NCBI GenBank assembly: GCA_016187745.1
Contig: JACPJC010000006.1
Location: 96,001-160,000, forward strand
Source of the DNA: Candidatus Iainarchaeum sp.
GTDB taxonomy: Archaea > Iainarchaeota > Iainarchaeia > Iainarchaeales > JAXPJC01
Reading direction: 5' to 3'
DNA: 64,000 nucleotides
The notes under the pieces are model-generated. The model saw only the letters and a list, made by a program, of their open reading frames with translations, had not been told where the DNA came from and made no database searches. Within the stretch, counting starts at the first letter, position 1; each line of letters opens with the position of its first letter. The position numbers were made by a program, and so were the translations under genes. This document shows, in pieces, positions 4,231 through 48,589 of the stretch.

Positions 4231-4232
4231 AA

Positions 4233-5321: not shown

Positions 5322-5482
5322 GTTTCTGCCCCGAAATAGCGATGCCGATTTATTTTATTGTTTTATTAATTGAATGAGATTAGTATTAAATAGGTTATTG
5401 TATAAGCACAATTAAAGATGAAGGCAGGAAATGAACTAATGGAGTTTGCATTGAAAACTGTTAAAGATGGAAAATTCATATT

Positions 5483-6586: not shown

Positions 6587-6634
6587 TTTCCACCCCAAAT
6601 AAACTGCTTGGGATGTGGAATAATAGGCCGGGGC

Positions 6635-6646
6635 TGACATATGTCA
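6635..6646. promoter_or_regulatory. Perfect 12-bp palindrome TGACATATGTCA; putative operator between divergent genes
   Basis: Lies in the ~90-bp divergent gap between the binding-protein gene and the HTH-10 regulator, next to a TATA-like TTTTTAAA. Confidence 0.5.
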
Positions 6647-6679
6647 TATTTTTAAAGTTTTCTAGTGAATAAGTTATTT

Positions 6680-7378: not shown

Positions 7379-7387
7379 AATAAACAC

Positions 7388-8362: not shown

Positions 8363-8370
8363 ATGCATAA

Positions 8371-8460
8371 AAACGATAAAAATCATTAAAAATCTATTTT
8401 TTATAGCAAAATTATGAAAAAAGTGTTATTAATACTAAAAAACAAGTATTTTTATCGTTT
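8371..8460. promoter_or_regulatory. 13-bp inverted repeat bracketing a divergent promoter
   Basis: AAACGATAAAAAT (8371-8383) and ATTTTTATCGTTT (8448-8460), each just upstream of a start codon. Confidence 0.55.
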
Positions 8461-8479
8461 AACTAGGGGTGATGAAAAA

Positions 8480-9628
8480 GTGAACAGGCGCATAATTCTG
8501 ATTTCGGCTGCGGTCATTGCTGTTGGTCTGGTTGTGTTTTTTGGCTTGAATCAAATGGGCCTTGCTGGCTTAAGCGCCCCGGAGGGCGCGGGAGGCACTG
8601 TTAAAATTGGCATAATGCTCCCTTTAACAGGCGATGCTGCATTGTATGGCGAGAGCATTGGAACTTCATTGGAACTTGCAAAGGAAGAAATAAATGCGGA
8701 GGGGGGCATTCTGGGCAGGGAAGTTGAATTGGTCTTGGAGGATTCCGCGTGCAATGCGAATGAAGGGGTAAAGGCAATAAACAGCTTAGTGAATTTGAAG
8801 GGATTGAAGCTCATCATTGCTGCGGAGTGCAGCGGCCCAAGCCTTACTGCTGCGCCGGTTGCGGAAGATGCAAAGGCCCTTTATCTGGTTGCTGTTGCAA
8901 GCAACCCTGACATAAAGTACGCCGGAGACTATGTTTTCAGAATCGCCCCGAGCGATGCGCAGCAGGGAAAGGATATTGCGCAAATTGTTTACGATGGGGG
9001 ATTCAGAAATACTGCGGTTTTATTTATGGACAATGCATACGGAGAAGGGATTGCGGGGGTTTTTATGGAAGAAATTGGAAGGCTTGGCGGAAAAGTTGCA
9101 ATCAAGCAGCGCTTCAACCAGGATGATTCTGATTTCAGGACCCAGCTTTTGAAAACTAAGGAAACAGGGCCTGATTCCCTGTTCGTTGTTGGCTATCCGC
9201 AGGCATACCAGCTCATAATCAAGCAGATGTATGAGTTGGGATTGAATGCGCAGATATTTGCAGGCGACACATTCAAGGAGGCATCCATTGTGGAAGCGCT
9301 GGGGGATAAGGTAGAAGGCGCTATTTTTTCAGCGTATGCTGAAAGCAATTCGGAGGAATTCAGGCGGTTCAAGGAAGCCTACAGGAAAAAATATGGAAAA
9401 GAGTACGGCCCATACGGGGATTATGGGTATGACAGCCTTTATGTGCTGAAAGCAGGCATTGAATATGCAAAAAGCTTTGATCCGGAAGTGCTGAAGGAGA
9501 AATTATACGGGGTTGAATATCGCGGGGTTACGGGCCTAACGAAATTCGACTCATACGGGGAAGTGGACAAGCCTTTCGGAATAATGACTGTGAAGGATGG
9601 GATGTTTGTGCCTTATGAGGCGGGCTGA
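8480..9628 (+). CDS. Branched-chain amino-acid ABC substrate-binding protein (second copy)
   Basis: KIG..LPLTG, EINA.GGI.GR.VELV.ED..C, YVFR.AP.D..QG, DFRTQL, G.TG...FD..G; GGGGTGA RBS then GTG. Confidence 0.9.
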   Translation: MNRRIILISAAVIAVGLVVFFGLNQMGLAGLSAPEGAGGTVKIGIMLPLTGDAALYGESIGTSLELAKEEINAEGGILGREVELVLEDSACNANEGVKAINSLVNLKGLKLIIAAECSGPSLTAAPVAEDAKALYLVAVASNPDIKYAGDYVFRIAPSDAQQGKDIAQIVYDGGFRNTAVLFMDNAYGEGIAGVFMEEIGRLGGKVAIKQRFNQDDSDFRTQLLKTKETGPDSLFVVGYPQAYQLIIKQMYELGLNAQIFAGDTFKEASIVEALGDKVEGAIFSAYAESNSEEFRRFKEAYRKKYGKEYGPYGDYGYDSLYVLKAGIEYAKSFDPEVLKEKLYGVEYRGVTGLTKFDSYGEVDKPFGIMTVKDGMFVPYEAG

Positions 9629-9717
9629 AAAGGCAATTGGCGCAAGTAACATTCCGGAAATCAGCCTCCATCAATTAGTTAATTTAATTAACTCTTTTTT
9701 CCTTTATATTTGGTTTT

Positions 9718-10593
9718 ATGGTTCTGGAGCAATTGGCGGTAAATGGCATAATTGCGGGTTCTGAGTACGCGCTGCTCGCGATCGGGCTGACCCTGATTTA
9801 TGGAATTCTGAGGCTCATTCATTTTGCCCATGGGGAAGTGGCAATGGTGGGGGCTTACAGCGCTTTTGTTGTTAGCGTGGTTTTTGGCCTGCCACTGATT
9901 GCAGGGTTTTTTGTCGCAATTGCCGCAGGGGCATTGCTTGGAATCGCAGTCAACAGGATTGCGTTCAGGCCGGTAAGAAAACAGCACATACTTATCGGGC
10001 TCATTACAGCAATTGCGGTTTCAATTCTGCTGCAGAATGCCATTGCATTGTTTTTCGGGAATGACATAAAAACATACAATCTGGGGGCTGTTGAGAAAGG
10101 GATTGAAGTATTTGGATTCATCATAACAAAAACGCAGATAGTGATTGTTTTTACAGCAGTTGCCTTAATGCTGCTGACCTGGGCATTCATTAAGAAAACA
10201 AAAATAGGGCAGCAGGTGAGGGCGGTTGCGGACAACAGGGAACTGGCTGAAAGCATCGGAATTGATTCTGAGAAAGTAATCGCATGCACCTTTGCATTTG
10301 GCTCTGCCCTGGCTGCAGCAGGGGGAGTATTAATTGCGGCCGAAACAAATTTAGCGCCAATGATGGGCCTGATGCCGAACATCAAGGCATTTGCTGCAAT
10401 TATTGTTGGAGGCATTGGAAGCATTCCGGGGGCGATTTTTGGCTCATACTTCATTGGCCTGGCCGAGAATATTGGGATATGGTTTTTGCCTTCAGGCTAC
10501 AAGGATGCGATTGCATTCTTTATTCTCGTAATTTTCCTTTTGTTCATGCCAACCGGAATTTTCGGTAAGAAGAAGGAGGGAATTGAGCAATGA
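9718..10593 (+). CDS. livH: Branched-chain amino-acid ABC permease LivH
   Basis: NG...GS.YAL.A.GLTL.YG...L.HFAHG, T..G...RAVA.N..LA...GI, AF.A...GG.GS..GA. Confidence 0.93.
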   Translation: MVLEQLAVNGIIAGSEYALLAIGLTLIYGILRLIHFAHGEVAMVGAYSAFVVSVVFGLPLIAGFFVAIAAGALLGIAVNRIAFRPVRKQHILIGLITAIAVSILLQNAIALFFGNDIKTYNLGAVEKGIEVFGFIITKTQIVIVFTAVALMLLTWAFIKKTKIGQQVRAVADNRELAESIGIDSEKVIACTFAFGSALAAAGGVLIAAETNLAPMMGLMPNIKAFAAIIVGGIGSIPGAIFGSYFIGLAENIGIWFLPSGYKDAIAFFILVIFLLFMPTGIFGKKKEGIEQ

Positions 10594-26462: not shown

Positions 26463-26807
26463 ATGATTCCGGGAATTCCAGCAGGGATAAATCCAAAGCA
26501 AGTGGAAATGCTCATGCGCCAGTTCGGCATAAAGACCGAGCAGATAAATGCGAAAAGGGTAATTTTTGAGCTTGAGGATAAAAGGCTTGTCATTGAGAAT
26601 CCGCAGGTCAATTCAATCATCGCGCAGGGGCAGAAGATGTACCAAGTTGTAGGGGAAGCGAAGGAAGAGGGAAAAGAGGGGATAAATGAGGGAGATTTGA
26701 ATCTGGTTATGGAGCAGAGCGGCGCAGCAAAGGCAAAGGCGGAAAAGGCGCTGAAGGAAGCAAACGGCAACATCGCTGAAGCGATAGTTAAATTGAAGAA
26801 GCCATAA
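26463..26807 (+). CDS. nac: Nascent polypeptide-associated complex protein (aNAC)
   Basis: NP.Q...MRQ.GI, I.A..V.F, I.NPQV, YQV.G, C-terminal UBA D..LV.EQ.......A..AL....G.IA.AI..L. Confidence 0.93.
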   Translation: MIPGIPAGINPKQVEMLMRQFGIKTEQINAKRVIFELEDKRLVIENPQVNSIIAQGQKMYQVVGEAKEEGKEGINEGDLNLVMEQSGAAKAKAEKALKEANGNIAEAIVKLKKP

Positions 26808-26833
26808 ACAACCTGAATTTTAATATACTACTT

Positions 26834-26848
26834 GTTCTATAATAGAAC
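26834..26848. promoter_or_regulatory. 7-1-7 palindrome GTTCTAT-A-ATAGAAC directly before the adhesin start codon
   Basis: Between TATA-like TTTTAATATA (~26818) and ATG 26850. Confidence 0.4.
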
Positions 26849-26849
26849 T

Positions 26850-29800
26850 ATGCCCAGGACTGAAAAAGGACAGGCCGCGCTTGAGTATCTGATGACCTAT
26901 TCCTGGGCGCTTGTTGCAATTGCAATAGTCATTGGAGTGCTTATTTTCATGGGAATTTTGAAGGCGCCTTCTGCTGGAACTTGCACAGGGCTTGAGAAGC
27001 TTGCATATGAGGACCATACCATAGATTCCAACGGGAATTTCATTCTCTACTTAAAAAACGGGGCAGGAATGCAGATTGCCATCAACAGCATATCGCCGGG
27101 TGAAGATTTCAGCGGAAATTGCAGCGCAAGTTCCGCAATAATAAATGCAACAAAGGATTTCAATATTGTGTGTATCAATACAGGAATAAGCGCAGGCCAA
27201 ACTTATAATGGAAAAATAACAATTGAGTATATGCGCAGGAATGCAAAGCATACCGAAAGCGCGGCATGCTCAGGAACAGCGCCCTTGAGCGGGATATTTT
27301 TGGTTGCCCCTGCCCCGCAAATCATTGAGGGCTTTTTCAACGGTTCAGGGAACAATGTTGACCTGAACAACCCTGACGAGATGACGCTTGGGGGCGGAGG
27401 GGGTAGTTATGCATTTTTTGGCAGTTATACTTCGGATGTTTTTGATGCAAACTCAACAATGGACTGGACCGCAAGCATCTCATGGGATGAGAACGCTCCG
27501 GCAGGAACTGACATTAATTTACAAACAAGAACTTCTGACAATAATGTTGCATTTAGCGCATGGAGCGGCTATTACACAAATCCTTCAGGAGAAGCAATTA
27601 CCTCCCCTAATGGGCGCTTCATACAATATAAAGCGAATTTGAGCACTACAAACCCGGCGCTTACGCCGAGATTATTGGAAGTGAGAATGCATGGGAACCC
27701 TCTTGCGCAGAGCTGCGGCAATCTGAAAAGGGAGGGAAGCGAACAATGCGATACAAATGACCTGGCAGGATCAAATTGTGTTTTATTGGGCTATTCTTCA
27801 GGCGCCCTTGCGTGCAAGGCAGACTGCACATTTGATACGAATGGATGCGTTGGCGCAACTACTACAATGCTTTGCCCTGGCAGCAAAACCTGGACTTCCC
27901 AATCAGATTGGCAGTCCGGGGCGCTTGCAAATATTGATGCTACTTCAAGCCCTGGCAGCATAAAGCTTTCGCAGCCATCAACCTCAGGAACATGGAACAT
28001 TGTTGTTGATTCAAATGCCGCGCCAACAGACTGGAATGCGATAAGCTGGAGCGAGGACTTGAATTATGGGGGAGAGCTTGCAGGAGATGCTAACACAAAA
28101 TTGCTTTTGCATTTGAATGAGGTCTCGGGTTTAACTGCTGCAGATGCAAGCGGGAATGGGAACAATGGAACACTAACAAACGGAGCAACATGGACTTCTT
28201 CAGGGAAGTTTGGGAATGCATTGGGCTTTGATGGAATAAATGACTACATTGATGTTTCCAATGAGTCTCTTTTTGATTTTGAAAGAACTTCTCCATTTAC
28301 ACTAAGTGCATGGGTTAAGTGGGCTTCAGGCACTACACAAACCTTATTATCCAAACAAACAAGTGCTGGCAACGCACCAGGATGGTTATTGATTGTTAAT
28401 GCAAATGGAACTCTGGCAATGTGGCTCGTAAATGATGCAGGTGCGGGTTGGAATCTAATACATGTCGATTCGGTGAGTTCTATAGGGCTGGGGACATGGA
28501 ATCATGTAGTAATGACTTATGATGGTTCGAGTACTGCGGCCGGAGTAAAGTTGTTTATAAATGGCAATCAAAGCGGGACAACAATAGTAACAAATACGCT
28601 TTCAGCTTCTATTCTCAACAATGTTGATGTGTGGATAGGAAATAGGCAATTTGCTGACATACCATTCAATGGTACAATTGATGAAGCTGCTATATGGAAT
28701 AGAGCACTGGGTGCAGGTGAAATCCTTGAGCACTACAAGCGCGGCGCGCTGAATCTTCGATTTAGGACAAGAAGCGCACCAACGCAAGGCACCTTGAGTT
28801 CTGCTTCATGGGGTGGCTATTACACAGAATCCCCTTCAGCAATAGCTTCGCCGAACAACAAGTGGATTGAGGTTCAAGCATTGCTTGAAAATTCAGATGC
28901 AAACTATACAAATTACACGCCAGTGCTGAATGATGTAAGCATCAGTTGTGCTGGCGCTCAAGGCAATCAGGCTCCTTTTGCAGGGCTTGGCGCTTCAGCA
29001 TATTCGGCAAATGCTGGAAGCTATATTGCTTTTTATGGGAATACCTCCTATGACCCTGACGGGAATATTGTGAATTATGCGTGGAATTTCGGGGACGGGA
29101 ATGCAGTTGCAAGCCCGGCAAACTATCCGCTGGGCGCAAAGACATTATTGCGTTTTGATGAGGGAATTGATTCGGCAGCAGGTGATGCGAGCGGAAACAA
29201 CAATGGTGGAACAATAAGCGGGGCTGCTTGGACCTCTTCAGGAAAGTTCGGGAATGCGCTCGCTTTTGACGGGGTTGATGATTATGTTAATTTGCCGCAA
29301 AAAATTACAGATGCCGAAGGAACCATATCGGCATGGATTAAAACCGGCGGCGATGTTAGCAGCGCGCAAAGGATATATTCCCAATCCACAGGGGGCGCAA
29401 GCAGCAACAGGGTAGCAGTTACGATTTTGTCTGGGGCTTTCCGTTTTGACGCAGGATTTGCGCCAGGAGGAGTTCAGTTGGATATTGGCAATGTCCAGCC
29501 AAATACCTGGTATCATATAGTGTGGACAAGTGATGGCTCCACGATTAAAGGATATGTAAATGGGGCAAACCAGGCTTTAACTGTTACGGGGGGGAGCAAC
29601 AGCGGCCAATGGTTCAGCGGCATAACCTCAAATTATGCCAGGATCGGCAATATGCGCTATGATGATATCTCAGGAAACATCCAATATTTCAACGGCACAA
29701 TCGATGAAGTTGCAATTTATAATCGCGCATTGGGCGCAGGCGAAATACTTGCCTTATACCAGGGCGGCCCTGCAGTAGTGTATCATAAGTACAATCTCGC

Positions 29801-32297
29801 AGGAGATTATAATGTTGTACTTACAGTAACTGATAATAATGGCGCAACTGATGCAAACACCGTGAGCGTAAGCATCACTTCAGGCCCGATAAGCTTCTGC
29901 CCGGGGACAAAAAGCTGGACAACGCAGGCTGATTTCAATTCAGGAAGCGATGTAAATGCTGACACTTATTCAGATCCCGGAAGCATAATTTTAACAAAAA
30001 GCGGGGAAATAGCGCCTGATGCAAACACAAAGCTGCTTATGCATTTTAATGCAAATCCGCAAACGCATTTGGGAACGGAAATGGATTCTTCAGGAAACGG
30101 AAATAATGGAACGGTTTATACAAATGAGGGCGCAACAAACAAGGCAGTTGCAGGAAAATTCGGAAGCGCTTTGGGCTTTGATGGCATTGATGACCGCGTA
30201 TCCGTCCCGGACAGCGATTACTGGAATCTGGGTTTATATTTCACTATTGGCATGTGGGTTAAATTCCAGAGCGGAACAATAGACAATGAGCATTATTTGC
30301 TGGGCTATAATTACGGGAGCAATAACAGGAATTTCTGGGTGGCATACCAGGGGCAGCTTTCGCCGGATCAGCTGCATTTTAATTTTGCCACTGACGGCTC
30401 AGGCGGCCACTTCGGGGGCATGAGCGTTGCATGGACGCCTAATGCAGGGCAGTGGTATAATATTGCAATTGTGAGAAATAGTGCTGATTTGAAGATGTTT
30501 ATAGATGGCATGCAGATCGGCTCCACTTACAATATCGGCGCAACGAGCATGTGGGCCGGCTCAACAGCAGGCATAGAAATCGGTTCGGGGCACAATTCCC
30601 GCCATAGCGGCGAAATGGATGAAGTTGCAGTCTGGAACCGCGCGCTTTCTCCAAGCGAAGTCCTTGCGCTTTATCAGAGCGGCTCGGCATACCGCCCTTC
30701 AGGCACATGGAACGGAGTATTTGATTCAAATTCAATTGCAAGCGGCTGGAACACAATAAATTGGGGCGAGGATTTGAATTACGGCGCTGAACTTGCAGGG
30801 GATTCCAATACAAAACTGCTTTTGCATCTGAATGAGGGTTCTGGAACAACTGCAAATGATTCAAGCGGCAATGGGAACAATGGGGCATTGTTTAACGGCC
30901 CTATCTGGACTTCTTCAGGAAAGTTCAGGAATGCGCTGCAGTTTGATGGAACTGATGATTATGTGAAATTCTCGGCAGCAAATATGCCTACAGGGGAAAG
31001 AACAGTTGAATTGTGGTTCTATAACACAGACACAACAGCGGTGGGGGCAAGGCAGATATTCGGATATGGGGGGAACAGCAACAGCCCCGCATATTCTTCA
31101 TTTTTGATTTACTCCTCCGCAGATAAGAAGGGAATTACTGCCCATATGCATTATCCCGGGGGCGGGATCCTGAATTATGCAGGAACTTCGCCGATGACCA
31201 ATGCCTGGTATTACTTGGTGCTCACAACTGACGTGAGCGGAAGCAGGCTTTACATAAATGGAAGGCTGGTTGATTACAATGCAGTAACCCCTTCAACATA
31301 TGTTTCGGGCAAAGATGGATTTGTGGGTGCAATGCCTTCAGGCAGCGGCACTGGAACCTATGTTGACCCGAATTATCCCTATTGGAAGGGGAATATAGAT
31401 GAAGTTGCAGTTTACAACGCAGCGCTGGACGCAAATAAGATACTTGAGCATTACAGGAAGGGCGCCGCAAATATAAGATTGAGGACAAGAACTGCCGCAT
31501 CGCAGCTGGCATTGAGCAGCGCGGAATGGAGCAATGAGAATGAGATTGATGCGAATTCTGACATCAATGGATTGTGGCACTTCAATGAAGGAAGCGGCAG
31601 CATTGCAAGCGACTCAAGCGGAAATGGGAATAACGGAACATTGATGAATGGAGTGGCATGGGCTTCTTCTGGAAAGTTTAAGAATGCGCTGCAGTTTGAT
31701 GGGGTTAATGATTATGTTAACATAATTAAATCTGATGAGTTTCATTTAGGAGCGGGTAGTTTTGCTGTTACAGCATGGGTTAACTTTGCGGGGTTAGCCG
31801 GAAATCAGAATATTCTTGCGTTTTATACCATTGCCAATCAGGCTTTGCAATTTGCTTGGAGTACAAACGTTTTAACTGTTTGGGGCGAAACAAGCACTGT
31901 TTTAAGCACATCAGGATTTTCCCCAACTCTTAACAGATGGTATCACGTTGCATTTGTAAGAAACGGGAATGCCTGGAATATTTATGTTGATGGCACGTCA
32001 TATGCCAGTGCAACTGATGCGAGAACTTTAAATTATCCGAAGGATAATATTGGGATAGGCGTTCTGCCTACGTCCTTGCAATATTTCAACGGCAAGATAG
32101 ATGAACTTGCAATTTGGAACAGGGGATTAAGCGCAGGCGAAGTGCTCGGGCTTTACAAGAGAGGCAAATATTACACGGCAGGCCCGAGCGCAATAACAAG
32201 CGATGCCAACAGGTTCATTGAGGTGCAGGCGCTCCTGGAAACTGAAAATTCCTCTTACACGCCGGTGCTGCAGGATTTGAACATAAGCTGCTCTTAG
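26850..32297 (+). CDS. Giant class III signal-peptide (type IV pilin-like) adhesin with five LamG/concanavalin-like domains, a PKD domain and a Cys-rich repeat
   Basis: KGQAALEYL plus hydrophobic helix; five GKF..AL.FDG..D / G.IDE.A..N.AL units; DPDG.I..Y.WNFGDG ... H.Y...G.Y.V.LTVTD; CGN...EG.EQCD. Confidence 0.92.
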   Translation: MPRTEKGQAALEYLMTYSWALVAIAIVIGVLIFMGILKAPSAGTCTGLEKLAYEDHTIDSNGNFILYLKNGAGMQIAINSISPGEDFSGNCSASSAIINATKDFNIVCINTGISAGQTYNGKITIEYMRRNAKHTESAACSGTAPLSGIFLVAPAPQIIEGFFNGSGNNVDLNNPDEMTLGGGGGSYAFFGSYTSDVFDANSTMDWTASISWDENAPAGTDINLQTRTSDNNVAFSAWSGYYTNPSGEAITSPNGRFIQYKANLSTTNPALTPRLLEVRMHGNPLAQSCGNLKREGSEQCDTNDLAGSNCVLLGYSSGALACKADCTFDTNGCVGATTTMLCPGSKTWTSQSDWQSGALANIDATSSPGSIKLSQPSTSGTWNIVVDSNAAPTDWNAISWSEDLNYGGELAGDANTKLLLHLNEVSGLTAADASGNGNNGTLTNGATWTSSGKFGNALGFDGINDYIDVSNESLFDFERTSPFTLSAWVKWASGTTQTLLSKQTSAGNAPGWLLIVNANGTLAMWLVNDAGAGWNLIHVDSVSSIGLGTWNHVVMTYDGSSTAAGVKLFINGNQSGTTIVTNTLSASILNNVDVWIGNRQFADIPFNGTIDEAAIWNRALGAGEILEHYKRGALNLRFRTRSAPTQGTLSSASWGGYYTESPSAIASPNNKWIEVQALLENSDANYTNYTPVLNDVSISCAGAQGNQAPFAGLGASAYSANAGSYIAFYGNTSYDPDGNIVNYAWNFGDGNAVASPANYPLGAKTLLRFDEGIDSAAGDASGNNNGGTISGAAWTSSGKFGNALAFDGVDDYVNLPQKITDAEGTISAWIKTGGDVSSAQRIYSQSTGGASSNRVAVTILSGAFRFDAGFAPGGVQLDIGNVQPNTWYHIVWTSDGSTIKGYVNGANQALTVTGGSNSGQWFSGITSNYARIGNMRYDDISGNIQYFNGTIDEVAIYNRALGAGEILALYQGGPAVVYHKYNLAGDYNVVLTVTDNNGATDANTVSVSITSGPISFCPGTKSWTTQADFNSGSDVNADTYSDPGSIILTKSGEIAPDANTKLLMHFNANPQTHLGTEMDSSGNGNNGTVYTNEGATNKAVAGKFGSALGFDGIDDRVSVPDSDYWNLGLYFTIGMWVKFQSGTIDNEHYLLGYNYGSNNRNFWVAYQGQLSPDQLHFNFATDGSGGHFGGMSVAWTPNAGQWYNIAIVRNSADLKMFIDGMQIGSTYNIGATSMWAGSTAGIEIGSGHNSRHSGEMDEVAVWNRALSPSEVLALYQSGSAYRPSGTWNGVFDSNSIASGWNTINWGEDLNYGAELAGDSNTKLLLHLNEGSGTTANDSSGNGNNGALFNGPIWTSSGKFRNALQFDGTDDYVKFSAANMPTGERTVELWFYNTDTTAVGARQIFGYGGNSNSPAYSSFLIYSSADKKGITAHMHYPGGGILNYAGTSPMTNAWYYLVLTTDVSGSRLYINGRLVDYNAVTPSTYVSGKDGFVGAMPSGSGTGTYVDPNYPYWKGNIDEVAVYNAALDANKILEHYRKGAANIRLRTRTAASQLALSSAEWSNENEIDANSDINGLWHFNEGSGSIASDSSGNGNNGTLMNGVAWASSGKFKNALQFDGVNDYVNIIKSDEFHLGAGSFAVTAWVNFAGLAGNQNILAFYTIANQALQFAWSTNVLTVWGETSTVLSTSGFSPTLNRWYHVAFVRNGNAWNIYVDGTSYASATDARTLNYPKDNIGIGVLPTSLQYFNGKIDELAIWNRGLSAGEVLGLYKRGKYYTAGPSAITSDANRFIEVQALLETENSSYTPVLQDLNISCS

Positions 32298-33655
32298 GTT
32301 TTTTCTACGGCGCGTATTGCAATGGCCTTATTGCGCTTCCCATAGAAGTCAATATTCAAGTAGATTTCCTCCCCGGTTGAATGCCCCGGAACTGCAAACA
32401 GGGGCAAATAATTCGCATCAATTGTGTAGGAAGCGTTTGTGTCTGGCATTGTAAGAGTGTTGATGTTTGATTTTCCCGTTTGGTAAGTGTTTGAAGAAAT
32501 GTGCTTTTGCCCAAATAATGTTTTAAGCGAAGTGTTAATTGCAGAGGTTTGCCCAGTGCCTGTGTTCAGGTCAATATTAAGGCTTGCGGAAGGCTCCTTC
32601 AATTCAATGCCGCTTATGCTTATTCCAAGCGCCGAGATTTCATTTATTATTTCCGCCTTGAGGCTTGCGAATGGCTGCGCCTCATTGAAATCTATTGCCG
32701 CATATAAGTGATTTTCATCAACAGGCACGAAGAAGAAGTTTGTAATTCCTGCAATTGAGGAAAACGCAGAATTCAAATCGCCCTGCTTTGAGGCCGCGTT
32801 CGCATCGGATATGTTGAGGCTTATTCTCTTCATGCCTGGGAAAATCTCAACATCCGCATTTTCAATCCCATCAATTGCAAGAAGTTCGGCCTCAAGGCCG
32901 TTTCCATCCGGGAGATATGAATAATTCACATCGCCGTAAATTACAATCCTTTTGTCAAGTTCAGAAAGCGCATAAATTCCTTCCAGGGAAAGCGGAACAG
33001 CCTCCGCTGTGAGATTCTTTGATTCAAATGCCAGTATGTCAATAAGCGCTTCCCCCGAGAGCGTGACGTTAAGAACTGCCTTCAGCGCATCGCCCTTTCT
33101 GCCTTCTACAGATAAATAGGCATTTGAAAACTGCCTTTCAAGACTGTGGGTTTTTGTTATATTGAGGTCCGCATTGCTCAATTCAATTTCATTCGGAAGC
33201 GCCACAAGGCCAAGGGCCGCTGCCTCAATCGCATGGAGAGTTCCTTCAGCGGATTCTGAAATATTTTCTGCAATCTCCCCTGCGGAGTATTTGGAATTGT
33301 CATATGTTGCTTCCGCAGAATAGGCAAGGGAGAATCCGCTTCCCTGCTCAGGATTGCCGTATTTTGACCAGTTTATCCCGGTTATGCCGTTCGCATCCCG
33401 CACTTTTGCATCAATCTTGTCAATGTCCACTTCATTTGTTTTTCCTGAGAATGCGATTGTGGGGAAGATTTCAACAATGTTCGCGTCAATTTCACCTGCT
33501 GATTTGTACTGCAGGGGGCTTGGGGGAGTTACTGGCGGAGGCTCATTCCCATTCTGCTGCCCCTGCACATAGAACTCCCACACAAATGCGATGGTGCTCG
33601 CAATCATTATGAAAATTATGAAATAAGCGAAAAGCCTTGTTGCGTTCATTTTCAT
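32294..33655 (-). CDS. Hypothetical membrane-anchored extracellular protein
   Basis: N-terminal TM, Pro linker, acidic Asn-rich body with N-glycosylation sequons. Confidence 0.75.
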   Translation of the reverse strand: MKMNATRLFAYFIIFIMIASTIAFVWEFYVQGQQNGNEPPPVTPPSPLQYKSAGEIDANIVEIFPTIAFSGKTNEVDIDKIDAKVRDANGITGINWSKYGNPEQGSGFSLAYSAEATYDNSKYSAGEIAENISESAEGTLHAIEAAALGLVALPNEIELSNADLNITKTHSLERQFSNAYLSVEGRKGDALKAVLNVTLSGEALIDILAFESKNLTAEAVPLSLEGIYALSELDKRIVIYGDVNYSYLPDGNGLEAELLAIDGIENADVEIFPGMKRISLNISDANAASKQGDLNSAFSSIAGITNFFFVPVDENHLYAAIDFNEAQPFASLKAEIINEISALGISISGIELKEPSASLNIDLNTGTGQTSAINTSLKTLFGQKHISSNTYQTGKSNINTLTMPDTNASYTIDANYLPLFAVPGHSTGEEIYLNIDFYGKRNKAIAIRAVEKT

Positions 33656-39049: not shown

Positions 39050-41002
39050 ATGAAAAGGCGCGGATTTGCCCTTGGGGAAATTGCATTTGTCGTACTGATA
39101 GTCCTGGGGGTGCTGTTTGTGGCTTTTTTGGTCGCGCCGGAGCCGGAGGAAGGGCCATCGGTTCCAATTGCCAAATTTGAATCCTGCGGCGCAATAACCG
39201 CGGCATTCAAGGAAAATGCGCAGAACTTCAGGGGCGGCATAATTTATGAAATGGGCGGAGTAATGCCCGTGATGAGTTCCGCAACAGGGGGCGCAAAGGA
39301 CCAGGGCGCTGCGAGCTACTCAACAACAAATGTGCAGGTGGCAGGCGTTGATGAGGCGGACATTGTGAAAAATGACGGGAAATATATCTATGTGGTTTCG
39401 GGAAACAAACTGATTATTGCAGATGCATATCCTGCTGAAAGCGCGGAAATTCTTTCCTCAACAGAACTGGGGGAAAACATAACCCCGCAGGAGATGTTCA
39501 TTGGAGAGGATAGCGTGCTGGTTTTTGCAAATAATTATGTGCAGCAATACACCAGGCAGATGGAAATTGGGGGGGATGTTATAATGCCCGGCTTCAGCAC
39601 AACAATCGCGCAGCTGTGGGACGTTTCAGACAGGGAAAACCCGATATTGGAGAAGAGCGCGGAATTCGAGGGAAGCTACTTGACTTCAAGGAAAATAGGC
39701 AGCAATGCTTACTTTGTAATAAACAGCAATCCATATTATTACTGGCTTTATGAGGAAACTGTCAATGATGAAATTACCATCCCTAAGTACAGGGAACTGG
39801 GCGCGGAAGAGCTGGATTCCGGGAAGGAAATTGAATTTGAGCCGGTTGCAAAATGCGGGGAAATTGCGTATTTCGAGCCAATACAGGCAAGCGCATTCAT
39901 AACAATCGCATCAATGAACATTGATGATTTTGATGCCGAAGTGAAAAAGCAGACAATTGTGGGATCGGGGCAGAATGTTTATGCCTCGCTTGATGCGCTT
40001 TACCTTGCAGAAGTGAATTACAATTATGGCTTTGCAATCCCCTTCATAGGGGATGTTATGCCCCCTGAGAACCCTGAGGAGACAATTATACATAAGTTTG
40101 CATTGAAGGACGGCGATGCGTCATATTCCGGCTTTATGGAAGCCCCAGGGCATATTCTGAACCAGTTCTCGATGGACGAATTCAATGGGTATTTCAGGAT
40201 TGCAACAACAAAGGGCGAAGTGTGGAGCGGAAACTCAACAAACAATATTTATGTGTTTAACAGCGACTTGAACATGGCGGGAAAGCTTGAAGAGCTTGCG
40301 CCGGGGGAGAAAATCTATTCGGCGCGCTTCATGGGGGAAAAGGCATATCTGGTAACTTTCAAGAAGGTTGACCCGTTATTTGTAATAGATTTGAGCAATC
40401 CGGAGAAGCCTGAAGTTCTGGGCAAGCTGAAGATTCCGGGGTATTCGGATTATTTGCATCCGATTGATGAAACGCACATAATAGGATTGGGGAAGGAGGC
40501 TCTTGAGGCGGATGAGGGGGATTTCGCATGGTACCAGGGGATTAAGATTGCGATATTTGATGTTTCAGATGTGGAAAACCCTAAGGAAATGTATAAAACA
40601 GCCATTGGGGACCGGGGAACAGATTCCTATGCGCTTCATGACCATAAGGCATTCCTCTATGATAGGGGAAAGAATCTGCTTGTAATTCCAATTCTCCTTG
40701 CTGAAATAAACGAGGCGCAGTATCCTGAGGGGGTGGAAAAAAACACATATGGGGATTACACGTTCCAGGGCGCTTATGTGTATAACCTGACGCTTGAGAA
40801 CGGCTTTGAGCTTAAGGGAAGGATAACGCACCTGGATGCGGATGATGAAAGCCTGCAAAAGTCTGGCTACTATTATGACAGCACAAACTCGATAAAAAGG
40901 GCGCTTTACATTGATGATGCGCTCTACACAATCTCAGATGCGAAGATACTTGCAAATTCATTGAATGACCTTTCACAGATAAGCGAGCTGAAGATTGCAT
41001 AA
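39050..41002 (+). CDS. Membrane-anchored beta-propeller protein (Beta_propel family)
   Basis: YS.TNVQV.GVDEADIVK.DG, NQFSMDE..G.FRIATT, LAPGE.IYS.RF, VTF..VDPLF, LKIPG.S.YLHP. Confidence 0.92.
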   Translation: MKRRGFALGEIAFVVLIVLGVLFVAFLVAPEPEEGPSVPIAKFESCGAITAAFKENAQNFRGGIIYEMGGVMPVMSSATGGAKDQGAASYSTTNVQVAGVDEADIVKNDGKYIYVVSGNKLIIADAYPAESAEILSSTELGENITPQEMFIGEDSVLVFANNYVQQYTRQMEIGGDVIMPGFSTTIAQLWDVSDRENPILEKSAEFEGSYLTSRKIGSNAYFVINSNPYYYWLYEETVNDEITIPKYRELGAEELDSGKEIEFEPVAKCGEIAYFEPIQASAFITIASMNIDDFDAEVKKQTIVGSGQNVYASLDALYLAEVNYNYGFAIPFIGDVMPPENPEETIIHKFALKDGDASYSGFMEAPGHILNQFSMDEFNGYFRIATTKGEVWSGNSTNNIYVFNSDLNMAGKLEELAPGEKIYSARFMGEKAYLVTFKKVDPLFVIDLSNPEKPEVLGKLKIPGYSDYLHPIDETHIIGLGKEALEADEGDFAWYQGIKIAIFDVSDVENPKEMYKTAIGDRGTDSYALHDHKAFLYDRGKNLLVIPILLAEINEAQYPEGVEKNTYGDYTFQGAYVYNLTLENGFELKGRITHLDADDESLQKSGYYYDSTNSIKRALYIDDALYTISDAKILANSLNDLSQISELKIA

Positions 41003-43046: not shown

Positions 43047-44255
43047 ATGGGCGCAAGGGTTTACGCATTTTACGCATTATTGCTGTTTGCCATTATCGGC
43101 CTTTCTTTTGCATATTCAGCAACGGTTGAGGAGAAAACCTTCGCGCAGATGGTTTATGATGATTTTGTTGTTTCGGGCGCGAACAGGGAGAAATGCGAGG
43201 AAATCGCCTTCGTGAGGGCAAACGATGAGAACTACACAATACTCAGCGTGCACGCTGATTTCATGCCGAATGCAACAGGCAGGATTGCAGGAATAAGCGT
43301 TTATGTGAATGACGCGAATTCCGCGCTTACAACGCTGCTTGCGGGAAACTTCCTGGAGGACTGGGCAAGGGTAATTCTCCCCAAATGGGAGCTGAAGGAA
43401 AAAAACAAGATCAAGCTCTGCGCAAAAACCTCGGATGTTGTAACCGAAATAAAAATACTGAACGATTCTAAGATTGGGACTTATAGAATTGCAGATTTTT
43501 CAAAGGAAGGGGCATTCACAAAAACTGCAAGCAATGCTTCCCCCGAAGTCGGGGAGGAAGTGAAAGTTACAGTAACACTGCACAATTACGGGAATGAGGA
43601 AACATTCGTAACGATTAAGCACATTGCGGAGAATGTGGAGATGCCTGAAATTGAGATAACGCGCGGGGAAACGGAAAAGAACGGATGGGTTGCCCCGGGG
43701 AATGAGATTGCAATGGAATATTACATGAGGCCCAAGGTTGCGATAAGGATGTCGCTCCCATATGCAATTGCGGAATACACAAACACTTTCGGGGAAACGG
43801 TAAAGCTGGCATCAGCAATGCCGGATTTGGACGTAAAGGCAATTGAGCAGAGGCTTTTTGCAATAGTGCTTCCAGAAAGCAATGTGAAAAAGACAGGGGA
43901 AAGGGCGAAAATCGCAATAGCGGTAAAGAACCAGAGCACGGAAACAATAAAGGATGTGTTTGTTTCAATTTCACTGCCTGAGGGAATTGAACTCGAGGGC
44001 TCAAGCTCAAGTAACATTCCGTTAATAGAGGCAGGGGAAACTGTGAGCCTTGCGTTTTATGTTTCCGCGCAAGAGCCGGGAACTTACAGGGTGGGGTGCA
44101 ACGTAACCTATGATTCTGTGCCTTTGGCGTGCGACAGGGTAGCGATTGCCTATGAGGCGCAGGGGATAAACTATGCAATAGTCGCAGGCGCGGTTCTGCT
44201 CGCAATAGGGCTTGCAATCTACATGTATCTCTATTTCTCCTCGGAGAAGAAGTAG
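43047..44255 (+). CDS. Surface protein with Ig-like (CARDB/DUF11-like) domains and C-terminal TM anchor
   Basis: Signal peptide; two GE...V...N.G/S...GE..... Ig-like units; C-terminal TM plus KK. Confidence 0.8.
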   Translation: MGARVYAFYALLLFAIIGLSFAYSATVEEKTFAQMVYDDFVVSGANREKCEEIAFVRANDENYTILSVHADFMPNATGRIAGISVYVNDANSALTTLLAGNFLEDWARVILPKWELKEKNKIKLCAKTSDVVTEIKILNDSKIGTYRIADFSKEGAFTKTASNASPEVGEEVKVTVTLHNYGNEETFVTIKHIAENVEMPEIEITRGETEKNGWVAPGNEIAMEYYMRPKVAIRMSLPYAIAEYTNTFGETVKLASAMPDLDVKAIEQRLFAIVLPESNVKKTGERAKIAIAVKNQSTETIKDVFVSISLPEGIELEGSSSSNIPLIEAGETVSLAFYVSAQEPGTYRVGCNVTYDSVPLACDRVAIAYEAQGINYAIVAGAVLLAIGLAIYMYLYFSSEKK

Positions 44256-44344: not shown

Positions 44345-47300
44345 TTAATCGTTTTTCAGCACTTTTTGGAACCTTATCTGCTGCTTGGCGCCCCTTCCCC
44401 TGTGGCGCATGTAGAAAATGAATCCTATGAGCGCAAACAGGGGGAGCGCGGCAAGGGGAAGAAGCGGAATTTGCTGCTGACCGTCCTGGAGGGAAAGGAG
44501 CAGCATTGCGCTGCCTGAAAGCGCTATCGATTTCAGGTAATTGGATTTTGCAATTTCCGATTTGGAGCTTTTCATGAGCTCAGGGATGCGCGAGTCCGCA
44601 AGCATTGCGCTGTTGAGCTTGGAGTTTGTTTTTGTATAGTTTGCAATTGCATCCTCCCTCAAGCGCCGCTCAGCATTCTCAAGCTCTGCGGAAATTGCTT
44701 CCGCCTCCTGCAGGCGGGTTTCAAATTCCGGGGAAATTCCCTCATAGCCTGAAAGCGCTTCTTCAAAGCCCTGGGATGTGCTCTTCTTGATGAATTCATT
44801 GAGGCTCGCGCCCAATTTAAGGGAATCCAGGCGCGTTATCTCAAGCAGGATTTTTTCAATCCTCTCCCTTGTTATCGGGGGGATATAATCAAGCCTGTTT
44901 ATTATTCCTTGGGTGATTTCATTGAAATTCTCCGCAAGCCTTGAGGCGCGCGCCTTCAATCCGGTTTCGGAGAGCAGGGAGGAAAACCTGCTGATTTTTT
45001 CCGATATTGATTCTGTTTTCTGCATCAGCTGGCTTTTTATGGCATTTTCATACTCGTCTGTTTTTTCGGCAAGCGCATCCAATGCGGATTTCGCATCGGC
45101 ATAATTCCCGCCCATTATTGAGCTTTCAATTCTTGAGCTTAAATCAAGCGCGGCTTCCTTTAGCTGCAGGGAGTTGTAATCCCGGATCTTGAAGCGGAGC
45201 ATGCGCTCAATCGCGCTGTTCGCCTTCTGCATAAGCGCGCTCTTGTCGTTTGAAAGGAGCATTGCAAGGTTCTTGCTGCTGCGCTCGTTCAGGAGCGCTT
45301 TTGCCCTGAACAATGCGCCCAATGCTGAATCGTAATCCGGAATGGATTTGCTTGTTTGCGCATCTTCCGCATACTGCCGGGCCTTCTGCACATTTGAATT
45401 TAGCGCGCCTGCCTGCTCCGCATATCCGAATGAAGTGAGCTTTGCAATTTCCCCTTCTGCCTCATTTACCTCATCGGAAACCTGCGAGCTCAGCTGCGCG
45501 TACTGCGAAGATTGCTGCAGGAGCGTTTGTTCCCTTTCAAGCAGCTTTTCTGCTTCCTTCGCAATTGCACTTATTGAATTTATGTGCCTGCTTTCAGTGA
45601 AATCCGAAGTGCTGCCAATTTCTGAAAGCTCTTCCGCAAGCGATGCCGAGTAACCAGCTATTTCCCCGCTTTCGGAACTTGCAAGCGATGAAAGCCTGCT
45701 TTGCAGCCCATCAATGACTCTTTGCCAATAATCCAGATAATTCCGCACTTCATAGGAAAAATAAAACTGCATTGATTGCTGCGGGTAAAGCTCTGGAACA
45801 ACAAATGAAATTTTGCCCGCATCAATTATCTCAAATCCGATTTCCTTCCCGGAGGAATCAAAGAGCTCCCCGTTCCTTATTTCCCCTGCGGAAATTGCAA
45901 TTGGGACTGCGACCCTTGTTTTGAGGATGGGAATTTCAAGGTTGTTTTTCATTGAAATCAGGAAATCATAGGCCGTTGCGTTCTCATCAATTTTCTCTGA
46001 ATTCAGCAGCCCAACATTCGCATCAACCGGATTTGCAATGGAAAAATAAATTTCAATCTGCTGCCTATCGCGCGCGTTCTGCAGGATGAATTCTATTGAA
46101 TTGCCGTTTACCGCGCTTTCAATTTGCCTGCTGTCGGAATAGACAAAAGCGTCGCTTATGGGGTAATTCCCCGCGGGCGAGGAAATTTTAAGCACCGGAA
46201 GGTCAGCATTAGCCTTTATCGTGATGGTGCGCCTCACTGCGGCCTTGCCAACATCAACAAACAGCAGCTTGTCTTCCTGTTCCGAACTTGCGGCAACCGC
46301 ATTCACATCAAAAAGCGCAAGGGTTTTTCCCGGGGGAAGGGAAGAAAGCGCAAAAGAAATTTTTCCCTGCGAATATTCTGCCGAGATTATATTGGGGGCT
46401 GCGTATGCAAGCCTCAGGCCTGAAAGGCCCTCAAGGGGGATTTCAAACTTGATTTCATCGTAAAGCGCCTCATTGAGGGGATTTTCAAATGAAATTCGCA
46501 ATTGCGAGGCGTACAGGGAATCAAGTAGCGGAACTTCCCCTGCAATGAGCTCCTTTGCGTAGGAGTTCCGGAGGTATTTTGAAATTGCATCCTTGAGAAG
46601 GGAGCGCAGTTCCGCCGAAAATTCTTCAAGGTTTGCATTCAGCTCGGGCGCGAGCGGCATTACCGCTGGCAGGTCAATCTCATTCTCAGGGAAGAATTTC
46701 CGGAATGAGGAGAACTTTGAATTTATTTTGCCCATTTCCGAATCTGAAACAAATCCTGCGTAATTTGAATTGGCGCCTTTTATGGCCTCAATTATCCTGC
46801 CTGTTTCTGAGAATTTCCCTGAAATTTCCTGAATTTCCGGATTGTTGGAGAGATAGGCATAGGCATCCTGCTTCAATTGGGTGCAGGCCTGCAGAAGCTG
46901 CTCAGGATTCTCGCTTTCCGGGAGAAGGGCCTGCAGCTTGAAGAACCTTGGCTGGAAGTCCTTCAGTTCTTCCGCGCCTTCAGAGAATAATCTTTGCAGA
47001 TAGCCCGCGCAATTGCGCAGCCCATTCTCATTTGCCTCCTCGAACTCCGCAAAATCGGTTTTTGCGCCAGCATAGGAATTGTACATTTCAATAACCGGCT
47101 TGCATGCAATGAGCTTCTGCCTTTGGGAGTTTGAGTCAAGGTAGCCTGCAATATTGTATGCGAGCCTTGCCCTGAGGTCTGAAAGCTTACTGCTCTCAAT
47201 ATCAATATTCAGGCCCTCCCTTATTGCATTTATGCGCGAATCGCAAAGCACTTCCAAACCCTGCAGCACCTCGCTGCTGAAATAATCAAGCCCTGAATTC

Positions 47301-48589
47301 AGGTGCTTAATTCCGCCGAGAATTCCCTTGAGCCCTGAAACGCTTTCCCCTGAAGAGGCTTTTCCAAGAGCCTCCAGCTCCAAAAGGGAATTGAATTTCT
47401 GCGATAATTCATACAGCTTTCCTGAGCTTGCCTCCTTGAAAAGCGCGATGTCGCTGATGCTCTGGGTCTGCGTTGCAATCTCGCTCTTCTGGCCAAGGAG
47501 CGCATACAATCCCGAAAGGAAATTGGAATCAAACGGGGAATATGCCTCGGAATCAATATCCGCAATCCTTGAGTTTGAGGATGCAAGGAGCTTCTGTATT
47601 TCCTGCTTCAGCGATGCGCTTCTTTGCGAGAGGGAATCCCTTGCCCAGTAATCCTTGCGCATCAGCTCCGCAAATTCCTTCGCGACTGAATTTTCAGCCC
47701 CGGAAAAGTCATTGAAGAAATTCAGCACCTCAAATGCCGGAAACTTCAAAAGCGCATTGAGGGAGGGGTCGACCTTGCTCCGCATCGTAATGTAATTTAT
47801 AATTCCCGAAATCGCATCCGTTATGAGCGGAATATAAAATTTGTTCTTTTCATTTTTTGCTGCTTCCTTGAGGAGCGGCCCGTCATAGTAGGAGATGAAA
47901 TCCCATATGTTTGATTCTTTTGTTGTTATTTTGCTGAATCCGTATGCATCCGCAAGCCTGTTGAAGGCATTTAGGCGTGAAAAATAGAATTTCACATAGC
48001 TTTCCGGGAATTTTTCATTTGCGCTTGACTGTATTGCCTCTGGGTTTTTCAGCTCATTGAGGTTGTTGTTAAGCAGTATGTAGAACGTGTAGAGCTCCTC
48101 CTCCTTTATTTTCCTGATCTCCTGCCTTTCCAAATCTGCCGCTTCCAGAAGAAGGATTTCAAAGCTTGCAGTGTTTGCAAATTCAGCGCTCCTGAATTCC
48201 TCATTCAAGTTGCTGTTCAGTTCGTTCACATTCCTCGGAAGGAGCGCAAGATCCGAATCCGAGGCGCAGAGCTGGTAAATCCTTTTTATGTTCGCAATCG
48301 CGCGGTTGTGGAAAAGCCACGCCCTTGCAAGGTAATTTTTGTAGAGGTTCAGTTTTTGGGAAGTGGATGCTGAGAACTGCGCATCGGGGAAATTGAAGAG
48401 GCCTGCATTGACCTGCTGGAAGCAGGCTTCCTGCGTTTCGCATTTCGGGATTGAGGTTTTTGAGTGCGAGGCTAGCTGCAGGCACTGCTCCCTTTGTTCC
48501 GGGGCAAGCTTCTGCTGCAGGCAGCCCGAAGTGAGAATAAGAAATGCGAGCAGAAGCGCGAGAATTGCGAAAATTTTTTTGTTCGGCAA
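44345..48589 (-). CDS. Very large (1414 aa) putative lipoprotein with helical and beta regions and a C-terminal TM
   Basis: Signal peptide ending LTSGC; several Cys pairs; C-terminal hydrophobic helix followed by RHRGR. Confidence 0.8.
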   Translation of the reverse strand: MPNKKIFAILALLLAFLILTSGCLQQKLAPEQREQCLQLASHSKTSIPKCETQEACFQQVNAGLFNFPDAQFSASTSQKLNLYKNYLARAWLFHNRAIANIKRIYQLCASDSDLALLPRNVNELNSNLNEEFRSAEFANTASFEILLLEAADLERQEIRKIKEEELYTFYILLNNNLNELKNPEAIQSSANEKFPESYVKFYFSRLNAFNRLADAYGFSKITTKESNIWDFISYYDGPLLKEAAKNEKNKFYIPLITDAISGIINYITMRSKVDPSLNALLKFPAFEVLNFFNDFSGAENSVAKEFAELMRKDYWARDSLSQRSASLKQEIQKLLASSNSRIADIDSEAYSPFDSNFLSGLYALLGQKSEIATQTQSISDIALFKEASSGKLYELSQKFNSLLELEALGKASSGESVSGLKGILGGIKHLNSGLDYFSSEVLQGLEVLCDSRINAIREGLNIDIESSKLSDLRARLAYNIAGYLDSNSQRQKLIACKPVIEMYNSYAGAKTDFAEFEEANENGLRNCAGYLQRLFSEGAEELKDFQPRFFKLQALLPESENPEQLLQACTQLKQDAYAYLSNNPEIQEISGKFSETGRIIEAIKGANSNYAGFVSDSEMGKINSKFSSFRKFFPENEIDLPAVMPLAPELNANLEEFSAELRSLLKDAISKYLRNSYAKELIAGEVPLLDSLYASQLRISFENPLNEALYDEIKFEIPLEGLSGLRLAYAAPNIISAEYSQGKISFALSSLPPGKTLALFDVNAVAASSEQEDKLLFVDVGKAAVRRTITIKANADLPVLKISSPAGNYPISDAFVYSDSRQIESAVNGNSIEFILQNARDRQQIEIYFSIANPVDANVGLLNSEKIDENATAYDFLISMKNNLEIPILKTRVAVPIAISAGEIRNGELFDSSGKEIGFEIIDAGKISFVVPELYPQQSMQFYFSYEVRNYLDYWQRVIDGLQSRLSSLASSESGEIAGYSASLAEELSEIGSTSDFTESRHINSISAIAKEAEKLLEREQTLLQQSSQYAQLSSQVSDEVNEAEGEIAKLTSFGYAEQAGALNSNVQKARQYAEDAQTSKSIPDYDSALGALFRAKALLNERSSKNLAMLLSNDKSALMQKANSAIERMLRFKIRDYNSLQLKEAALDLSSRIESSIMGGNYADAKSALDALAEKTDEYENAIKSQLMQKTESISEKISRFSSLLSETGLKARASRLAENFNEITQGIINRLDYIPPITRERIEKILLEITRLDSLKLGASLNEFIKKSTSQGFEEALSGYEGISPEFETRLQEAEAISAELENAERRLREDAIANYTKTNSKLNSAMLADSRIPELMKSSKSEIAKSNYLKSIALSGSAMLLLSLQDGQQQIPLLPLAALPLFALIGFIFYMRHRGRGAKQQIRFQKVLKND

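Follow-up and report, generated by a model that had tools for sequence, protein, structure and literature searches.

The stretch of DNA analysed here, which we call the window, comprises 64,000 nucleotides from Candidatus Iainarchaeum sp. (assembly GCA_016187745.1, contig JACPJC010000006.1, positions 96,001 to 160,000), and carries at positions 26850 to 32297 of its forward strand, stop codon included, a gene for a modular protein of 1815 amino acids in which several domains are inserted into the loops of others. The protein consists of a class III signal peptide with a pilin module, three copies of a scaffold domain, one PKD domain and five LamG domains. The first scaffold copy is uninterrupted, the second is split by one LamG domain and the third by three, and the remaining LamG domain splits the PKD domain. 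We propose that its product is a modular type IV pilin with a nested, lectin-like cargo, made by an archaeon with a small genome, and give this explanation as a whole a probability of roughly 0.6.

The gene is a single open reading frame (ORF), which can be read from a TTG codon at window position 26832 or from an ATG codon at 26850. Residue numbers below count from the TTG, making the ATG residue 7; since an identical database copy (P0003) is 1815 amino acids long, the protein is taken to start at the ATG. Unless stated otherwise, coordinates are positions in the window, and all parts of the gene are on the forward strand.

Pfam recognized five stretches of Laminin_G_3 (PF13385) in the protein (E 1.5e-102, 340.5 bits against a gathering threshold of 27.6), and a LamG profile agreed with all five. 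The LamG domain within scaffold copy 2 (L1) occupies residues 417-640 (28080 to 28751; LamG profile match 413-640), and the one within the PKD domain residues 759-977 (29106 to 29762). The three within scaffold copy 3, at insertion sites that we label a, b and c, occupy residues 1057-1286 (L3a; 30000 to 30689), 1322-1545 (L3b; 30795 to 31466) and 1569-1778 (L3c; 31536 to 32165); L1 also sits at site b. The five domains are mutually 29-41% identical. Internal repeats were compared by segment searches and free-gap alignments, the latter returning some spurious short blocks, as BLAST of the whole protein against itself gave only the identity match.

The scaffold that holds four of these LamG domains is widespread. 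A phmmer search with copy 1 against 1.84 billion representative sequences found 2449 proteins at E≤1e-3, 359 at E≤1e-10 and 16 at E≤1e-30, and no Pfam family matched either the copy-1 segment (P0002) or a 121-amino-acid match (P0271). The best 150 proteins supplied 321 distinct copies without interruption and of nearly full length, from which we made a 148-position profile (SCAF). Copy 1 matches it as a whole jelly-roll at residues 173-290 (27348 to 27701; SCAF positions 22-136, E 3.5e-39). Copy 2 is recovered as an N-terminal half at residues 347-416 (27870 to 28079; SCAF 31-72 at residues 375-416) and a C-terminal half at residues 641-709 (28752 to 28958; SCAF 71-137, independent E-value (i-E) 1.1e-10), on either side of its LamG domain. 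Copy 3 falls into four fragments: N-terminal strands at residues 1022-1056 (29895 to 29999), which parallel residues 348-381 of copy 2; fragment 2 at residues 1287-1321 (30690 to 30794; SCAF 35-72 at residues 1284-1321); fragment 3 at residues 1546-1568 (31467 to 31535; SCAF 70-90); and C-terminal strands at residues 1779-1821 (32166 to 32294; SCAF 97-134 at residues 1783-1820, i-E 1.5e-8). The split pieces meet in profile coordinates, at 72/71 in copy 2 and at 72/70 and 90/97 in copy 3, and the host pieces are thus contiguous in the coordinates of the uninterrupted homologue. The same pattern of split matches is found in two close homologues, P0004 and P0005.

When the LamG domains were cut out in a script and the host pieces rejoined, each split scaffold gave one continuous match to the SCAF profile, with 50.7 bits for copy 2 (positions 29-136) and 56.8 bits for copy 3 (positions 32-134). 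Permuting the order of the copy-3 fragments lowered the best single match to 26.7-42 bits in 22 of 23 orders. The remaining order, in which fragments 2, 3 and 4 kept their sequence and only fragment 1 was moved, scored 56.1 bits, and the profile therefore says nothing on fragment 1; fragment 3 is needed for the continuous match. Among 30 control joins of equal-length pieces from within LamG domains, 28 scored at most 0.2 bits and 2 gave no match. At the level of sequence, these results argue for a triple split of copy 3.

The PKD domain is divided in the same way. Its two parts match complementary portions of the family (PF18911/PF00801), scoring 51 bits (cut-off 27) and 42 bits (cut-off 23.5). 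The N-terminal half, at residues 712-758 (28965 to 29105), ends in WNFGDGNA and covers positions 1-48 of the 85 of PKD_4 (match at residues 712-760), and the C-terminal half, at residues 978-1016 (29763 to 29879), falls under a match to positions 36-76 of the 80 of PKD (residues 967-1010). The insert begins directly after WNFGDGNA. An intact PKD domain of a 2155-amino-acid paralogue in the same genome (L028, residues 1082-1167) aligns with residues 712-758 and 978-1016 as contiguous sequence, the two halves meeting at its residues 1128/1129, with a score of 234 against 51 ± 8 for 200 shuffles (z = 23).

The scaffold was also examined in predicted structures. In the AlphaFold2 model of copy 1 (44-row alignment), residues 31-130 of P0002 reached a predicted local distance difference test score (pLDDT) of 92-98, with a predicted template modelling score (pTM) of 0.74 and low confidence for the 30 N-terminal residues. 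On this model the site-a insert maps ahead of the first core strand, the site-b insert to the loop of the hairpin that strands 45-62 and 67-76 form, and the site-c insert to an irregular stretch at 77-101. For copy 2, each half was submitted to a complex predictor as a chain of its own (residues 5-75 and residues 300-371 of a nine-row alignment, A2). Over three runs the docked halves scored ipSAE 0.74, 0.67 and 0.72, a median of 0.72, where the best control reached 0.04, with about 195 contacts, contact agreement across runs of at least 89% and a partner pLDDT of at least 81. In the predictor's calibration, 116 of 157 solved complexes attained this mark, as did 2 of 215 mismatched pairs; these counts are approximate here because of the custom nine-row alignment. 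The tightest contacts form an antiparallel strand pairing between residues 47-53 and 340-346 (A2 numbering), and the model supports the two halves of copy 2 forming one domain. The N-terminal residues 9-16 also contact the C-terminal strand, which lends support to the assignment of fragment 1 of copy 3 to its domain.

The preliminary description, made from the letters alone, had proposed this series of zero, one and three inserts together with the PKD domain split between WNFGDG and YHKY, and had expected rejoined scaffold fragments to superpose on copy 1 in predicted structures; the profile, excision, docking and PKD alignment results uphold the nesting, and in sequence the rejoined pieces give one continuous profile match. 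Its LamG boundaries agree with ours within about 15 nt, and its copy 1, begun at 27420, needs extension to 27348, where the profile match begins.

The predicted scaffold fold is a generic jelly-roll, too little to name a family. Foldseek with the copy-1 model against the PDB returned nothing at E≤1e-3, the best match, at 8e-3, being 3ggl, an F5/8-type-C domain, with CBM32 and the PNGase C-domain also among the best. VIA-align gave its best Z-scores to phage tail proteins (9.2 and 8.9), with CBM61 and the PNGase C-domain at 7.1, and an ESM Atlas look-up of the scaffold led only to unnamed clusters, with no model. PA-I lectin was rejected as an identity because a PDB sequence search placed it at E 0.11 at best, which we treat as chance. 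GH16 beta-glucanase was set aside as well: its PDB matches, obtained with the profile of a mostly bacterial alignment (A1, described below), fall outside the scaffold, on the domain located ahead of it in the bacterial sequences.

Two further features of the scaffold region concern cysteines. A Cys-rich linker between copies 1 and 2 (residues 293-346; 27708 to 27869) has no Pfam match and is 74-76% conserved in the homologues. Copies 2 and 3 each start with C-P-G and end with I-S-C, and a disulfide staple joining their first and last strands is possible.

The close homologues P0004 (1440 amino acids) and P0005 (1620 amino acids) permit a comparison of inserts and hosts. Both lack copy 2 and its LamG domain and keep copy 1, the split PKD domain and the triply split copy 3. 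Identity to P0004 and P0005 is 82 and 83% in the pilin module, 82% to both in copy 1, 75-87% in the PKD halves and 64-91% in the copy-3 fragments. Among the inserts, site b (75-78%) and site c (79-89%) are similarly conserved across the three homologue pairs. The PKD-site LamG domain is the most variable, at 36-46% in all three pairs, and the site-a domain is 81% identical between the window protein and P0004, both of which are 37-39% identical there to P0005 (37% for L3a of the window protein); in one homologue the site-a LamG domain has thus been replaced or has strongly diverged. Taken together, the hosts and the LamG domains of sites b and c show 71-91% identity among the three homologues. 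With the hosts conserved and the PKD-site and site-a LamG domains divergent, the inserts behave like variable cassettes for recognition, mounted in holders that stay conserved. A tentative extension, which we regard as possible rather than probable, is that the host domains are loop sockets displaying exchangeable LamG cassettes, with the sockets and two of the cassettes conserved and those at the PKD site and site a swapped or rapidly diversifying.

In P0005, a 180-amino-acid segment (residues 708-887) follows the first strand of the site-a LamG domain, bringing the nesting there to three levels; its only Pfam match, to DUF1583_C, is below threshold (E 0.0011). A search of 41 genomes for relatives of the protein gave matches in 27, all to the pilin module or to single LamG domains, with no full-length orthologue among them. 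A contig search for related loci found 17, all of them distant bacterial LamG proteins, and no further orthologue.

Nesting in one scaffold loop extends beyond these homologues. We scanned 270 proteins, made up of the homologue and scaffold matches and including the window protein, for split scaffolds. A scaffold match was found in 167 of them, amounting to 364 copies of full length, and 14 split junctions were distributed over 9 proteins. P0034 (3 junctions), P0247, P0072 and P0015 (2 each), P0110 and P0091 are split at profile positions of about 65-72 by 214-296 amino acids, and P0253 has two inserts in a single scaffold, at 68/71 and 94/95. Wherever the LamG profile covered the insert, the insert was LamG, and several modules also have a LamG domain immediately before the core, at site a. 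The paralogue L028 and a relative's protein (L023) carry modules of scaffold and LamG as well. Because composites with the same loop occupied occur in at least 8 other proteins, the nest is an inherited unit that is not special to this gene. All of these large, uncharacterised surface proteins (P0034 and P0015, from Woesearchaeota records, P0247, P0072, P0110, P0091, P0253, L028 and L023) resemble the window gene in having a jelly-roll split by an insert, but none has all three sites of one scaffold filled or combines the nesting with a split PKD domain. What is special to the window gene is the combination of three filled sites in one scaffold, a split PKD domain and a pilin base.

Besides its module of LamG, scaffold piece, LamG and scaffold piece, the L028 ORF (L028:776-7240, reverse strand, contig 6) has uninterrupted scaffolds and intact PKD domains, two of each, along with four CARDB domains and a TSP3 repeat. 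In alignment A1, 43 mostly bacterial proteins of 121-994 amino acids from the phmmer search, a recurrent architecture occurs twice over, running from N-terminal strands through a GH16-like or ConA-like domain of about 250 amino acids to the scaffold core. In the two-copy proteins, the roughly 250 amino acids lie between the 'T..DF..G...G..L' strands and each core and match GH16 beta-glucanase at E 1.7e-4, so that ConA-like domains at site a seem widespread.

The preliminary description had further held that the protein was built by repeated insertion rather than duplication, a choice between the two that the LamG tree does not favour either way. In this maximum-likelihood tree of 35 LamG domains from 11 proteins, from which matches over fewer than 150 profile positions had been excluded, 18 of the 32 inner branches lacked resolution, so that the order of insertion events cannot be told from it. 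The domains formed no site-specific clade across the 11 proteins, and site b required 10 changes against a mean of 11.6 for shuffled labels.

The cargo is attached to an N-terminal region that, as proposed earlier, resembles a pilin. Residues 7-158 (26850 to 27305) comprise a class III signal peptide, MPRTEKG/QAALEYLMTYSWALVAIAIVIGVLIF, and a pilin module. The N-terminus fits the pattern of such peptides, with a short charged leader, glycine or alanine at -1 (here glycine), about 20 hydrophobic residues and glutamate at +5, and the leader is conserved across 10 aligned homologues. Over its full length, the segment of residues 7-158 can be aligned with free-standing ORFs of 142-157 amino acids, of which one is found in the same genome and seven belong to relatives from its order; they share the KGQ(A/S)ALEYL... 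leader and two conserved cysteines. In the 41-genome search, five further proteins of the same genome were found to carry the module at 48-67% identity (156, 374, 552, 594 and 681 amino acids), with differing cargo. The closest, at 67%, is the 156-amino-acid paralogue, which lies beside a T2SSE ATPase gene and two T2SSF genes and is a candidate for the major pilin.

The genome contains the machinery genes for a type IV pilus, all above their cut-offs: three matches to the T2SSE ATPase (PF00437), five to the T2SSF platform protein (PF00482) and two to the prepilin peptidase (Peptidase_A24, PF01478). At a distance of about 35 kb downstream, the window gene is followed by an ATPase gene and two platform genes, directly adjoining the 594- and 156-amino-acid paralogues. 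This cluster (L035, contig 5) lies roughly 3-12 kb past the right end of the window and consists, in its own coordinates, of T2SSE (3246-4820, forward), two T2SSF genes (4823-5710 and 5717-6697, forward), the 594-amino-acid pilin (7347-9131, reverse), which carries two uninterrupted scaffolds, and the 156-amino-acid pilin (9248-9718, reverse). Homology and genomic context support the reading of the protein as a modular type IV pilin; its leader may be cleaved and the protein incorporated into a filament.

Within the window, the reverse strand at 53325 to 54449 encodes the 374-amino-acid paralogue, which joins the same class III leader and pilin module to one LamG domain (Laminin_G_3, E 2.5e-26) and represents this family of modular pilins in a simple form, with no nesting. 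Locus L012, considered as a second case of a LamG domain nested in PKD, proved to be a pilin with one LamG domain and no PKD. The 681-amino-acid protein (L053:867-2909, reverse strand, contig 7; leader RKA/QAALEYL) and the 552-amino-acid protein (L054:1506-3161, reverse strand, contig 1; leader KKA/QAALEYL) have no scaffold, no LamG domain and no significant Pfam family in their cargo.

Several observations weigh against a pilus-borne lectin with nested domains, and each is taken here with the alternative that it favours. The gene lies about 35 kb from the pilus cluster and not inside it, residues 7-163 matched no Pfam family at E≤0.1, and no pilin model was matched in the NCBIfam scan. In archaea, surface proteins outside pili likewise make use of class III signal peptides. 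These points would suit a surface-anchored adhesin outside the pilus, its signal peptide used only for export and anchoring or for a non-filament assembly, as would the presence of six pilin-module proteins with different cargo in a 0.96-Mb genome, which is beyond the obvious need of a single tip complex. The missing match to a curated pilin family is weak evidence, as archaeal pilins are poorly covered. The 67% identity to the paralogue beside the ATPase and platform genes, however, suggests compatibility with that filament, and the bacterial modular pilins that have been studied are incorporated by way of their pilin module (PMC8179133), so we consider an adhesin outside the pilus unlikely.

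It may also be that the architecture is as described and the LamG domains are not lectins. LamG and ConA-like domains have diverse ligands, including proteins and lipids. Those of the window protein might bind proteins, or provide structural or shielding mass, for example as variable decoys. Sugar-binding residues were not identified in them, and two variable cassettes would fit any surface under diversifying pressure. On the other side, the closest studied analogue, described below, binds glycans (PMC9934059), and the fold matches of the scaffold lean weakly toward carbohydrate-binding modules (best Foldseek E 8e-3; VIA-align Z 7-9, with phage tail proteins mixed in). Overall, a cargo without lectin function seems to us rather improbable.

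The nesting itself would be lost if the short conserved pieces were linkers between tandem LamG domains. An AlphaFold2 model of the whole of copy 3 (807 amino acids, 10-row alignment) is too poor to judge the reassembly, with a mean pLDDT of 55.6, a pTM of 0.37 and values below 50 for the fragments. Fragment 3 has only 23 residues and is a weak match on its own (i-E 0.54), and the informative stretch of the profile does not reach fragment 1. Against this alternative, the pieces match consecutive parts of a profile of uninterrupted domains and lose score on permutation, the copy-2 halves dock, and the PKD halves align with an intact PKD domain; we judge it very improbable.

Finally, misassembly of LamG repeats, a natural suspicion for a repetitive multi-domain gene from a metagenome and one raised in the preliminary description, has a negligible chance of being correct given the divergence of the LamG paralogues in protein sequence, the shortness of the DNA repeats within the gene (four of seven families 60-77% identical, the other three being matches of 18-22 nt, up to 91%), the presence of the PKD and copy-3 architecture in P0004 and P0005, which come from other contigs and assemblies, and the agreement of four sequencing runs of one study, which may be the source sample itself: two of them each yield one contig (9107 and 13776 nt) that covers window positions 26500-32600 with 0 differences, a contig from the third spans 27442-32600 and the fourth tiles the region, with no joints reported.

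As a modular pilin with nested lectin-like cargo, the protein would be processed by the prepilin peptidase and built into a filament by the pilus ATPase and platform by means of its signal peptide and pilin module of about 150 amino acids. Given its bulk, it would most likely sit at the pilus tip. The cargo of about 1660 amino acids runs from an intact scaffold through the Cys-rich linker to a scaffold that takes a LamG domain in the loop at profile position ~71; then come a PKD domain, with its LamG insert following WNFGDG, and a scaffold with three LamG domains. As every LamG domain has a single point of exit from and return to its host, all five would form side branches on small rigid hubs, as opposed to beads on a string. 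The likely function would be multivalent adhesion, probably to glycans of a partner cell or of the matrix, and a role in host recognition and symbiosis may follow.

Little is known of how DPANN-type archaea and other ultrasmall symbionts recognize and grip their hosts, and a pilin with five LamG domains, two of them highly variable between close relatives, would be a concrete candidate for that recognition. The protein would also illustrate how much a small domain can accommodate, with one beta-sandwich of ~140 amino acids tolerating three inserts of ~220 amino acids and a PKD domain of ~85 tolerating one. An unnamed scaffold with 2449 representatives, and with ConA-like inserts in other lineages too, points to a reusable, insertion-tolerant display scaffold that may be of interest for engineering. 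Should the tentative reading of sockets and cassettes be true, an ultrasmall archaeal symbiont would possess a compact, branched and re-programmable recognition organ at its pilus tip.

With a completeness of 91%, the genome amounts to 963,943 bases over 10 contigs. The genes neighbouring the window gene are archaeal housekeeping genes (the small and large subunits of PolD, Cdc6/Orc1, NAC, a proteasome subunit and FttA), and the named archaeal homologues of the large protein all come from Woesearchaeota records. With an archaeal genome of 0.96 Mb and named Woesearchaeota homologues, a DPANN-type archaeon is a plausible source. Elsewhere in the window are four ORFs for probable surface proteins: a 650-amino-acid Beta_propel (PF09826) protein (39050 to 41002, forward), a 402-amino-acid ORF with weak DUF11, NPCBM_assoc and CARDB matches (43047 to 44255, forward), a 1414-amino-acid ORF with no Pfam family (44345 to 48589, reverse), and a 959-amino-acid ORF with DUF5667 (49809 to 52688, forward).

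Literature searches on nested or inserted LamG domains and on LamG domains in DPANN pili found no description of this architecture. The novelty is smaller than the preliminary description suggested: modular lectin pilins have been published (PMC8179133; PMC9934059), and so has domain insertion over several levels (PMC13114784). It is the degree of nesting that is unusual.

A comparable archaeal surface-filament subunit is TafC, a minor subunit of haloarchaeal Tat-fimbriae whose model (NCBIfam NF052521; PMC11821415) matches the LamG part of the window protein. Membership in that family was rejected: the match is confined to the LamG part (profile positions 182-362) and scores 139.9 bits where the cut-off is 410. 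Tat-fimbriae subunits use the Tat pathway, whereas the window protein has a class III signal peptide.

Another parallel is found among bacterial modular pilins, a survey of which reports more than 1200 proteins in 264 architectures (PMC8179133; Raynaud, 2021). The survey is based on the bacterial IPR012902 signature, and the word 'archaea' is absent from its main text. In Streptococcus sanguinis, PilC combines a pilin module with Ig-like and ConA-like lectin modules; the lectin module binds glycans and has been modelled at the pilus tip (PMC9934059; Shahin, 2023), and a tip location is proposed for both PilB and PilC. As described, PilC resembles the window protein in its class III signal peptide, small pilin module and C-terminal adhesive modules, and both carry a module of the ConA/LamG superfamily. 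Unlike PilC, the window protein is archaeal, has a cargo of about 1660 amino acids with five LamG domains, and nests its modules instead of arranging them serially.

Domain insertion, in which one domain interrupts another (A1-B-A2), is reported in about 20% of multidomain proteins, including hosts with multiple inserts and up to six levels of nesting in cyanobacterial RNA polymerase (PMC13114784; Protein Sci, 2026). The main text of that study does not contain 'Concanavalin', 'laminin' or 'jelly'. According to the same source, inserts are consistently smaller than their hosts. The window protein departs from this rule, with inserts of 210-230 amino acids in hosts of about 85-140, and one host of about 140 amino acids carries about 670 amino acids of inserts; if the reading of sockets and cassettes is true, the protein would be a natural counter-example.

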